A stretch of 64,000 bases of DNA from an uncultured Helicobacter sp. (GTDB taxonomy: Bacteria; Campylobacterota; Campylobacteria; Campylobacterales; UBA6016). The stretch lies in the NCBI GenBank assembly GCA_964630205.1, contig CAZVTM010000006.1, positions 8,022 to 72,021 on the forward strand, written 5' to 3'. A model generated the notes under the pieces. The model was not told the DNA's origin and ran no database searches. It saw nothing but the letters and a program-made list of their open reading frames with translations. Below, in pieces: positions 25,072-59,301 of the stretch. The position numbers and the translations under genes were made by a program. Every line of letters starts with the position of its first letter. Position 1 is the first letter of the stretch.

Positions 25072-25425
25072 TTGAAAAAGGCTTTTTTAATTTTTGCCAT
25101 TGCCACAGGTGTATTTGCCGGCGAATTTGACGGCACATACTCGACCAAAAAAGGCGACATCAAAGTCATGCAATTTGATGGCATCGTAAACTTCATGCTA
25201 CTCTCGGTCGGTAGCGGGTCGATGTCCTCTGCTTGCGATGTGTCCGGCTCGGCTGTTATGCAGTCCAAAACTACAGCGCTGTTTCAAAGAGCTTCAGATA
25301 CCGGTGGCTGCGCAATACTTTTTGATTTTTCACAAAGCGGCAAACTACTAGTCAAGTCAAAAGGGTGCCAAATGTTTTGTACGGATAGGTCGGGGTTTGA
25401 TGGGGAGTATAAAAAGACGAAGTAA
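25072..25425 (+). CDS. small secreted/periplasmic protein with four Cys, function unknown
   Basis: It has a signal peptide 'MKKAFLIFAIATGVFA' and a TTG start with a GGAG upstream. Confidence 0.5.
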   Translation: MKKAFLIFAIATGVFAGEFDGTYSTKKGDIKVMQFDGIVNFMLLSVGSGSMSSACDVSGSAVMQSKTTALFQRASDTGGCAILFDFSQSGKLLVKSKGCQMFCTDRSGFDGEYKKTK

Positions 25426-25462
25426 ATTTGACTTTGTAACTAAAATTTGATACCATTCACAC

Positions 25463-25723
25463 ATGGCAAAACACGACAAACTTTTTGACAAATTTACGAA
25501 AATCCCGCCGTTAAAAGATTTGAGCTTTAACGAGTTGGAAACGCTTTTGACGCATTTGGGATTTGAGAAGATAGAGGGTAGCGGCTCAAGGATAAAATTT
25601 ATCCACAAAGACAAAAACCTAGTAATCAGCCTACACAAACCGCACCCGTCAAACATACTCAAAGAGTACATCGTAAAACAAATTCAGGAAGTTTTGAAAG
25701 GATTTAAAGATGGAAACGCTTAG
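25463..25723 (+). CDS. hicA: HicA-family toxin
   Basis: It is 86 aa and 'LLTHLGFEKIEGSGSRIKFIH...ISLHKPHP' is a YcfA/HicA-like pattern. It overlaps hicB by 14 nt. Confidence 0.8.
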   Translation: MAKHDKLFDKFTKIPPLKDLSFNELETLLTHLGFEKIEGSGSRIKFIHKDKNLVISLHKPHPSNILKEYIVKQIQEVLKGFKDGNA

Positions 25724-26051
25724 TTACAAAGGCTATATCGGCTCTTTGCACTACTCAAAAGAGGACAAAACTTTTTGGGGCAAGGTAGAGATGATACGCT
25801 CACTAGTTACTTTTGAAGCGGACAATGCGGCGGAGCTAGAAAAGGCTTTTCAAGAAGCTGTGGATGATTATTTGGCAACTTGTAAAGAGCAAGGGATAGC
25901 GCCCGAAAAACCATTCAAAGGAGTATTCAATATCAGAATACAACCAGAACTTCACAAAGCGGCATACGAAAAGGCGTTAAAAGAGGGTATATCGCTTAAT
26001 AAATTTGTAGAGAGTAGTATCGCTAATGCACTTTTGTCACATGGGGCGTGA
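25710..26051 (+). CDS. hicB: HicB-family antitoxin with C-terminal RHH
   Basis: Contains 'YKGYIGSLHYSKEDKTFWGKV...VTFEADNAAELEKAFQEAVDDYL' and 'FNIRIQPELHKAAYEKALKEGISLNKFV'. Confidence 0.85.
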   Translation: METLSYKGYIGSLHYSKEDKTFWGKVEMIRSLVTFEADNAAELEKAFQEAVDDYLATCKEQGIAPEKPFKGVFNIRIQPELHKAAYEKALKEGISLNKFVESSIANALLSHGA

Positions 26052-26114
26052 AAGAAAATAGCATATTCACTGAATTTTGTGATTTTCTGGTCACCACCAT
26101 TTACTTGAATTACT

Positions 26115-26195
26115 TCAGGCGCCTAAAAAATCCCTTCCTATTGAAAATCCGACCAGGATACCAATTATAGCACCGACAAGTGTAGGCCAATCCAT
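26115..26195 (-). CDS. unannotated 26-codon hydrophobic peptide (MDWPTLVGAIIGILVGFSIGRDFLGA), type-I-toxin-like candidate
   Basis: It has an ATG with an AGGAG SD (26202-26206) at 6-nt spacing and a single predicted TM helix. It is below the ORF-track size cutoff. Its own extended -10 lies upstream. Confidence 0.4.
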   Translation of the reverse strand: MDWPTLVGAIIGILVGFSIGRDFLGA

Positions 26196-26255
26196 CTCTG
26201 TCTCCTCTGATATATTGGCATTACACCAAACCCAAGCATTTTGGAATTTGGCAAT

Positions 26256-26264
26256 ATTATAACA
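26256..26264 (-). promoter_or_regulatory. extended -10 promoter (TGTTATAAT) for the small peptide gene
   Basis: The reverse complement of attataaca is TGnTATAAT. It lies about 60 nt upstream of the peptide ATG and implies a leader of roughly 50 nt. Confidence 0.35.
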
Positions 26265-26457
26265 CACATGCCGGAAAATGCGAGCCAAATTTGTACTGCT
26301 TCTTTACTCTAGTTTTTAACAAACATTGCAGTAAAAGCAGCAGACCCCCTTTTTTTGTTAATTTCCAGCCTAAATACAAACTATTTAATTGTTTGCGCTA
26401 TCTGCAGAAAAAAGCTAGAATTTTTATGCTCTCCAGATAAAAACAAAGAGGTCATCA

Positions 26458-27279
26458 TGATTCAAAGCTTTTTCAACAAACTAAAGGATAACACCTTAAT
26501 TAAATTTTTAAGATTGTTATGGTTATTTTTTAAAATACCAGACTTGGTAGAACGAAAGCTCAAAAAGTCTGATTTTAAAATAGCCATATCTTTTCTTATA
26601 ACCTCCATGGTATTCTCTAGCGCCCTGACTAGTGCAGTATATTTTTTATCAGATAAGGATACTGCGCCATTTAACTATATTGAAATTGTAAATATAATTT
26701 TTGCAATACTCATGGTGTGTTACTGGATAATTCTGCTGGCTTTTTATATGGCGATTTTCATGGCAATCACTCATTATTTAGCAAAAAACCAGAACAAAGC
26801 CTTACCCACTCTATAGTCGCAGTATTTATTCAAGCAATTAAAATATTTTCGGTACTTTTGCCACTAATCTCTGTGGTTATTGAATTAGCGGCACCTTATC
26901 TATTTGGCAGTGAATATTTACTCTATAGAACACCGCATACACCGTCTTTGTACATAACACTACCATTGCTGATTTTGTTTACAGTAGCAATTATGCGATA
27001 TATGTTTTACCTTTTTATAGATACGCCAAAAGTAACTTTGGGTTTCAAATGTTTAAATCCATATGTTTTGCGACAGCCATGGTAGCATTGACACTCACTA
27101 TGTTTAAGTGTTTTACTATACGGTCGATAGATGTATATTTATCATCAAATGTGATTAATAAAAAAGAACTAAGGGCTAAACTCAGAAATACTATAGGTGG
27201 ATTAATAGCCGAAGATCGCATAGATAAAGATAAAGGGGTAGCTACATTGCACGGTATAAATGTTATTTTAGGCAAATAG
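26458..27279 (+). pseudogene. multi-pass membrane protein gene split by two -1 frameshifts
   Basis: Three consecutive ORFs (frames 0, 2, 1) overlap by 100 and 37 nt. Hydrophobic helices continue across both junctions. The first junction is near an A6 run (about 26789). The likely start is MIQSFF at 26458, with an 'AAAGAGG' SD. Confidence 0.45.
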
Positions 27280-27282
27280 ATT

Positions 27283-27304
27283 CCGAAAGGCGAGCGCCTT
27301 TCGG
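27283..27304. terminator. perfect 10-bp hairpin between convergent genes
   Basis: ccgaaaggcg-ag-cgcctttcgg lies between the membrane-gene stop (27279) and the groEL stop (27328). Confidence 0.7.
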
Positions 27305-27327
27305 AGGAGAGGAGAAAGCGGAGGATG

Positions 27328-35736: not shown

Positions 35737-35893
35737 ATGACACCTATGAGAAAGTTTAACATTTGCTATGAAAATTATAACAATTCGCTTACTTAAAATA
35801 TAATTAAATTTTATGAAGTGCGACTTATGCCAAACAAAGCGTCATTTTTTGATAGAATTATCCAAAAAAATAATTCATGACGGATGTGCATCG

Positions 35894-59230: not shown

Positions 59231-59301
59231 TGCTAAAATTAGCCAATTTAACACTTGCTTTGATATAATAGAGAGTTTAAAAATTCCGTTAGGAGAAGTT
59301 T

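Follow-up and report, generated by a model that had tools for sequence, protein, structure and literature searches.

The window analyzed here is a 64-kb stretch of DNA from an uncultured member of the Campylobacterales, and its TrpS is 81-93% identical to the TrpS of six MAGs. Between trpS and groEL lies the type II toxin-antitoxin (TA) pair hicAB (25463-26051). Convergent with this pair, with 63 nt between the stop codons, is a 26-codon ORF that starts at an ATG at 26195-26193 on the minus strand and stops at a TGA at 26117-26115. The ATG, the spacing of AGGAG, the 26-codon frame, and the TGA had all been proposed in a sequence-only reading of this DNA, and each of them is present. That reading also placed an extended -10 about 60 nt upstream, which is borne out: TGTTATAAT at 26264-26256 is 60 nt from the ATG, which would put the transcription start near 26249 and give a leader of about 54 nt. 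On the plus strand, three ORFs of 119, 122, and 76 aa are read away from the peptide gene and occupy frames 3, 2, and 1 in succession. The features of the locus, along with the content of the same slot in related contigs, are collected in Table 1.

Table 1. Features of the hicB-groEL interval in the window, and cargo of the same slot in related contigs (window coordinates unless a contig is named).
Feature	Position	Strand	Basis or comment
hicA	25463-25723	+	Pfam E 5.5e-12
hicB	25710-26051	+	Pfam E 4.4e-21
Low-GC strain-specific cargo holding the ORF	26055-27281		Breakpoints: hicB stop, groEL terminator hairpin
26-codon ORF plus stop, MDWPTLVGAIIGILVGFSIGRDFLGA	26115-26195	-	Sequence, ORF list
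Proposed antisense promoter, TTGAAA-16-AATTAT	26141-26168	+	9/12 matches
Second perfect extended -10, TGCTATAAT, within the ORF	26164-26172	-	Motif match
Predicted leader, about 54 nt, two predicted hairpins	26196-26249	-	Fold prediction
Shine-Dalgarno AGGAG, 6-nt spacer to ATG	26202-26206	-	Sequence
Alternative extended -10-like site, TGATATATT	26208-26216	+	TGNTAWWWT match, low predictive value here
Perfect extended -10, TGTTATAAT, candidate promoter	26256-26264	-	Motif match
Weak, imperfect AU-rich hairpin (26293-26345), CCCC, U7 (26350-26356)	26293-26356	+	Fold prediction
Three overlapping membrane-like ORFs (26457-26816, 26717-27085, 27049-27279)	26457-27279	+	ORF list
groEL terminator hairpin, TCCGAAAGGC-GAGC-GCCTTTCGGA	27282-27305		Conserved right boundary of the slot
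TGNTATAAT copies outside the locus	59261-59269; 35774-35782	+; -	Perfect match
Slot of L081: signal-peptide ankyrin-repeat protein	L081 1992-2326		Contig ends inside the cargo, groEL out of view
Slot of L082, L172, L173: operon of 76, 32, 113 aa	L082 4346-5081	-	
Slot of L183: 76, 32, 102 aa version of the operon	L183 2846-3700		
Slot of L170: 136-aa protein	L170 917-1472		
Slot of L180: DUF1643-like protein	L180 3382-4104		

The predicted product, MDWPTLVGAIIGILVGFSIGRDFLGA, is one TM-like helix, and its most hydrophobic 15-residue stretch has a mean Kyte-Doolittle score of 2.41. It carries a net charge of -1, and its C-terminus, RDFLGA, has no lysine. Its glycines at positions 8, 12, 16, and 20 (i, i+4, i+8, i+12) fall on one helix face and make up a glycine zipper. 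Pfam Gly-zipper_Omp (PF13488) matches the peptide with an E-value of 0.027 and 14.8 bits, below the gathering threshold of 25, and the resemblance is motif-level rather than family-level. With a short frame, a start signal, and one predicted TM helix, the ORF has the makeup of a gene for a small single-pass membrane protein, and a TM-forming product of fewer than about 60 codons is also what is expected in size and hydrophobicity of a type I toxin. Of the 51 long ORFs in the window, 4 have AGGAG upstream and 21 have a 4-mer Shine-Dalgarno (SD) core there; SDs of this type are in use by real genes of the window. A 57-codon form that begins at the in-frame TTG at 26288 was rejected, since it lacks an SD and the extended -10 falls inside it, leaving the 26-codon form as the coherent one. 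At 26 codons, the ORF is too short for codon usage to be informative. A role as a leader peptide or attenuator was dismissed because the minus strand carries no gene downstream of the ORF.

The strongest competitor to a real gene is that AT-rich, acquired, and possibly decaying DNA has accidentally yielded promoter-like hexamers, an SD-like run of purines, and a frame that happens to encode a hydrophobic, glycine-spaced peptide, with no product made or none of consequence. We regard this as somewhat unlikely. We compared the window with 300 dinucleotide shuffles of itself. ORFs of 20-60 codons with AGGAG, a 4-10 nt spacer, and ATG number five in the window against 3.3 in the shuffles, and the other four of the five are evidently spurious, as an accident would have it. 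However, the 26-codon ORF is the only hydrophobic one among them, and AGGAG ORFs with a TM-like stretch are expected only 0.10 times per window when the 15-residue mean is at least 2.0 and 0.023 times when it is at least 2.4. Translated in all six frames, the window contains the pattern GxxxGxxxGxxxG a single time, in the 26-aa peptide, versus 0.24 times in the shuffles; inside an AGGAG ORF it appeared in none of the 300. The finding was picked by eye out of a large scan, which again favors accident, but it is improbable that a perfect extended -10 placed 60 nt before the start, AGGAG with its 6-nt spacer, the ATG itself, and a TM helix with a fourfold zipper would come together. Together, the joint chance probability of the ORF features is low, and the combination of ORF, SD, and -10 exceeds chance.

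The promoter motif cuts both ways. TGNTATAAT is found four times in the window against 3.3 expected, a chance-level count that suits an accidental origin. Of the two copies outside the locus, one precedes acpP by 33 nt and the other precedes a gene for a 151-aa protein by 38 nt; both are likely strong promoters that calibrate the motif in this genome. Judged by their placement, the motif marks real-looking promoters, and this speaks against accident. The relaxed motif TGNTAWWWT is depleted overall, with 27 sites in the window versus 37.8 in shuffles, and 7 of the 27 sit within, or on the border of, the 1.2-kb segment to which the ORF belongs (26055-27269, about 2% of the window). A promoter match there is therefore worth less than one elsewhere. 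Such a distribution is characteristic of acquired, AT-rich DNA crowded with promoter look-alikes, and the excess of -10-like motifs again fits an accidental origin. The fourth copy of TGNTATAAT, TGCTATAAT within the ORF, would, if active, give rise to an RNA that has neither SD nor AUG and that continues in antisense into the hicB 3′ end.

The segment that holds the ORF is 1.2 kb long and has a GC content of 0.29-0.35, compared with 0.40-0.49 in its flanks. In two relatives (L002 and L003, the latter with a GroEL to which that of the window is 95.8% identical), groEL abuts a 117-aa gene beside trpS, and there is neither hicAB nor cargo; relative to these two, the window carries an insertion of about 1.85 kb (25415-27270). 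Other relatives keep hicAB (L081, L082, L170-L181, and L183), at 85-95% nucleotide identity in L081, L082, L170, and L172-179, and differ in the cargo downstream. Homology between the window and the relatives that carry hicAB ends at window positions 26046-26054, a few nucleotides from the hicB stop, and resumes at 27280-27282. Counting the window, six related genomes hold six unrelated cargos in this slot, with the two operon versions counted, and their breakpoints agree within a few bases. The cargo of the window is absent from the five relatives in which hicB is next to groEL. We conclude from these alignments that the stretch of a few hundred bases from the hicB stop to the groEL terminator acts as a hypervariable swap site, a conclusion more solid than that on the peptide. 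The pattern is typical of accessory or defense hot spots and could be mined further.

The cargo DNA found no match among plasmids and phages by blastn, and no family match in Pfam, NCBIfam, or PADLOC. The three plus-strand ORFs, concatenated, had no homologue in the protein set, and the 119-aa ORF had no match among viral contigs. Given its composition and boundaries, the cargo is probably foreign, orphan DNA that was horizontally acquired. The three plus-strand ORFs may be one gene with two frameshifts (an A6 run lies near 26785), the product of assembly errors, or three coupled genes.

One of the alternative cargos also encodes a small membrane protein. A 32-aa ORF with a single TM segment, MLETFAMVFLAVMFVAMLAYGTYELTSENPKI, and a GGAG SD is found at 3706-3804 of L172, 4706-4807 of L082, and 3289-3387 of L183, flanked by a 76-aa two-TM gene and a 102-113-aa gene, and the shorter contigs L174-L179 hold the start of the 76/32/113-aa operon. 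L172 and L183, with HicB identities to the window protein of 96% and 83%, share 27 of the 32 residues. On this evidence of conservation, it looks like a real small membrane protein, encoded in an uncharacterized three-gene operon that travels with hicAB. Genes for small membrane proteins thus do travel in this slot, and the 32-aa ORF illustrates what conservation evidence for such a peptide would look like.

The sequence-only reading had placed the peptide gene next to hicAB, and this holds as a matter of position only, given that homology ends a few bases from the hicB stop. Since each relative with hicB holds other cargo in the slot, the ORF is part of the cargo and not of hicAB. Across 74 hicB loci there was no recurrent small hydrophobic ORF convergent with and downstream of hicB, and any such ORF at all was present at 4 of the 74. 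The ORF is not co-inherited with hicAB, as a third component of the pair would be. With the breakpoint at the hicB stop and no recurrence in the 74 loci, we rejected a functional link between the ORF and hicAB; lying beside a TA pair does not in itself argue for a TA function.

Exact-sequence look-ups of the window HicB, GroEL, 117-aa ORF, and 119-aa ORF returned no match, and the exact HicA sequence was found only on two short contigs (L170 and L171). In L180 (1907-3381), a 372-aa ATPase_2/AAA-type gene stands in place of hicA and overlaps the start of a 126-aa HicB, with the surroundings (trpS, the 117-aa gene, and groEL) otherwise unchanged. On L184 (1-4791) and L185 (1-4136), hicAB lies beside TraG_N and a phage-type integrase, and the HicB there is 81% identical to that of the window, which indicates that this hicAB lineage is also carried on conjugative or integrative elements.

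Searches for relatives of the peptide came back empty. Neither the peptide nor the 57-aa ORF has a relative in species-representative genomes, in a set of 5.8 billion proteins, or in metagenome and viral contigs. A tblastn search of plasmids gave only two matches, with E-values of about 8-10 and both inside permease genes, and peptide relatives were absent from 185 fetched loci searched in the same way. No paralogue was found elsewhere in the 64-kb window. A phmmer search of 1.84 billion representatives, with a 32-aa query made of the peptide and 6 upstream in-frame residues, gave three matches, all rejected as artefacts in which weak matches to tandem-repeat proteins add up. With no homologue in the collections searched, a result that favors accident, purifying selection on the ORF cannot be assessed. 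In syntenic relatives, the segment with the ORF and its SD is absent or replaced in every one, formally the outcome that the sequence-only reading had named as counting against a gene. By these comparisons the ORF is strain-specific, and its absence from relatives does not show that it lacks function.

We tentatively favor, at a confidence just short of even, a genuine orphan gene for a single-pass membrane peptide with a glycine zipper. Most likely, such a gene would be self-contained and would have arrived with the 1.2 kb of low-GC acquired DNA between hicB and the groEL terminator. What favors a gene is the rarity of a hydrophobic AGGAG ORF (0.02-0.10 expected per window) that also holds the sole fourfold zipper, together with TGNTATAAT copies just before real genes elsewhere in the window and AGGAG SDs in real use. 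It is weakened by the missing homologues, the density of -10-like motifs in the cargo, the second -10 inside the ORF, and the lack of a terminator 3′ of the ORF; in addition, three successive frames without homologues suggest decaying DNA. The earlier claim of an unannotated hydrophobic peptide gene with its own promoter stands as far as sequence alone permits, on account of a strong and well-spaced SD, a -10 like that at acpP, a TM helix with a zipper, and low joint chance.

We propose the following for how such a gene would work. The housekeeping sigma factor would recognize TGTTATAAT, and the resulting mRNA would carry a leader of about 54 nt with a short hairpin that partly occludes the AUG. 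Ribosomes would then load on AGGAG and make the 26-residue peptide, which would become a single-helix protein of the inner membrane. Through its GxxxGxxxGxxxG face, it may pack tightly against other copies of itself or against a partner membrane protein; the nearest candidates for a partner would be the membrane ORFs that the cargo encodes in the divergent direction. In the best case, the ORF is a new orphan within an established class, the small membrane proteins, and in the worst case it is nothing at all. Should the peptide be produced, the small membrane proteins of bacteria, a numerous and sparsely mapped group, would gain a further orphan, one whose glycine-zipper helix is unusually clean and would be easy to synthesize and test. 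For annotation, the locus is a caution: in acquired, AT-rich DNA, conservation offers no means to validate expression signals, however good they look.

A second alternative is that the ORF is the true 5′ end of a longer gene for a membrane or secreted protein, cut by a nonsense mutation, a frameshift, or recombination between the cargo and hicB, and now a dead stub. We find this improbable. In its favor, just 60 nt separate the end of the ORF from the cargo boundary at 26055, the three successive frames without homologues give the remaining cargo a degraded look, and an N-terminal TM helix with a good promoter and SD is the expected leftover of a truncated gene. However, the in-frame stop lies inside the cargo and not at the junction, further stops follow in the continuing frame within 60 nt of the ORF stop, and the exhaustive search with the 32-aa query found no longer protein that starts with the peptide sequence.

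The sequence-only reading had gone beyond a peptide gene and proposed the architecture of a type I TA locus, in which a membrane-damaging peptide toxin is blocked in translation by a plus-strand antisense RNA that acts on the leader, SD, or start. We consider this very unlikely. The antitoxin RNA would start at TTGAAA-16-AATTAT or at TGATATATT and would end near 26293-26356. Although TTGAAA-16-AATTAT is present as proposed, plus-strand promoter matches of the 9/12 type number 4 in the region against 4.6 in shuffles, so that, unlike the combination of ORF, SD, and -10, the antisense part does not exceed chance. An RNA from TGATATATT would overlap the leader, in antisense, for no more than roughly its first 27 nt. 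The hairpin and U7 on the plus strand fold at a predicted -10.9 kcal/mol (z -1.54) and were not called by the terminator scan, which found no intrinsic terminator on either strand from 25400 to 26900; as a terminator for a plus-strand RNA, the predicted structure is possible but unconvincing. An Rfam search at a permissive E-value returned sub-threshold noise only, with no hit reaching its gathering score, and the Rfam antitoxin families were thus unmatched.

At its full 191 nt, the predicted mRNA is not unusually stable compared with shuffles (z -0.48), an unremarkable fold that suits a chance ORF and weighs against a type I toxin. Locally, the 71 nt from 26250 to 26180 fold into two predicted hairpins of -18.5 kcal/mol (z -2.09), and 5 of 200 shuffles did as well. 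The second hairpin pairs the AUG and first codons, which favors the type I proposal, but it leaves AGGAG in the loop, so that in the predicted folds the SD is not sequestered until processing as in type I messages. Overall, none of the RNA features of the locus rises above what AT-rich sequence offers by chance.

Other features also weigh on the type I proposal. For it are a small hydrophobic peptide with its own promoter and a 54-nt leader, an opposite strand with -10-like sites and a weak hairpin followed by a U-run, and a setting typical for TA loci, in mobile, strain-specific DNA with another TA pair alongside. Pore formation would also be compatible with a glycine zipper. Against it are the absence of paralogues and of homologues in relatives, the lack of a basic C-terminal tail in a peptide with net charge -1, and the failure of small hydrophobic ORFs to recur downstream of hicB at the 74 loci. 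None of the tests run (antisense promoter, terminator, fold, Rfam, paralogues, and homologues) gave support to the proposed architecture, and the type I reading fails or stays undecided on every testable feature of the family except that of a small hydrophobic ORF. We hold it equally doubtful that the ORF belongs to an unseen type I family or membrane-acting abortive-infection module, in which a glycine-zipper pore former repressed by a plus-strand RNA would be an interchangeable cargo of the slot in sulfur-oxidizing Campylobacterales.

The orphan-gene reading, which we continue to favor, can be set beside several known systems. The AapA/IsoA loci are the type I TA loci of Helicobacter and Campylobacter (PMC5416894; T1TAdb, PMC8594479). 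The window ORF resembles them in encoding a hydrophobic-helix peptide of about 30 residues from an intergenic position in a Campylobacterota host, with its own -10-type promoter and a leader of tens of nucleotides. AapA/IsoA loci are multi-copy, with synteny conserved across strains (PMC5416894), several chromosomal loci being conserved in almost every strain, whereas the window ORF is single-copy, occurs in one genome, and lacks such conserved multi-copy synteny. In AapA/IsoA, the antisense RNA has been mapped and is driven by a strong promoter, and the full-length mRNA is translationally inert until 3′ processing; here, in contrast, the antisense promoter is at chance level, the fold is unremarkable, and the SD is in a loop. 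The toxicity of AapA1 requires C-terminal Lys-Arg, and a basic C-terminus is essential in the AapA peptide (PMC10537873), but the window peptide does not have the basic C-terminal residues of this family, being acidic overall and built around a glycine zipper.

A closer likeness is to small single-pass inner-membrane proteins, of which AcrZ, KdpF, and MgtS are examples. Such proteins act by binding larger membrane proteins (PMC12648545, PMC10730256). Like them, the window ORF would encode 20-50 residues with one TM helix behind its own SD, and it was missed by annotation; members of this class are often restricted to a strain or clade. They differ in having detected products, known partners, and conservation within a clade, whereas the window ORF is a candidate drawn from sequence and is unconserved. 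The four glycines on one helix face also recall transmembrane glycine-zipper helices with their (G/A/S)xxxG repeat. The nearest comparison by position is the 32-aa ORF of L172 and L183, which differs in belonging to a conserved three-gene operon (76, 32, and 102-113 aa) and is dissimilar in sequence to the window peptide, but which shares with it a small single-TM product, a GGAG-type SD, the strand opposite hicB, and the same slot.
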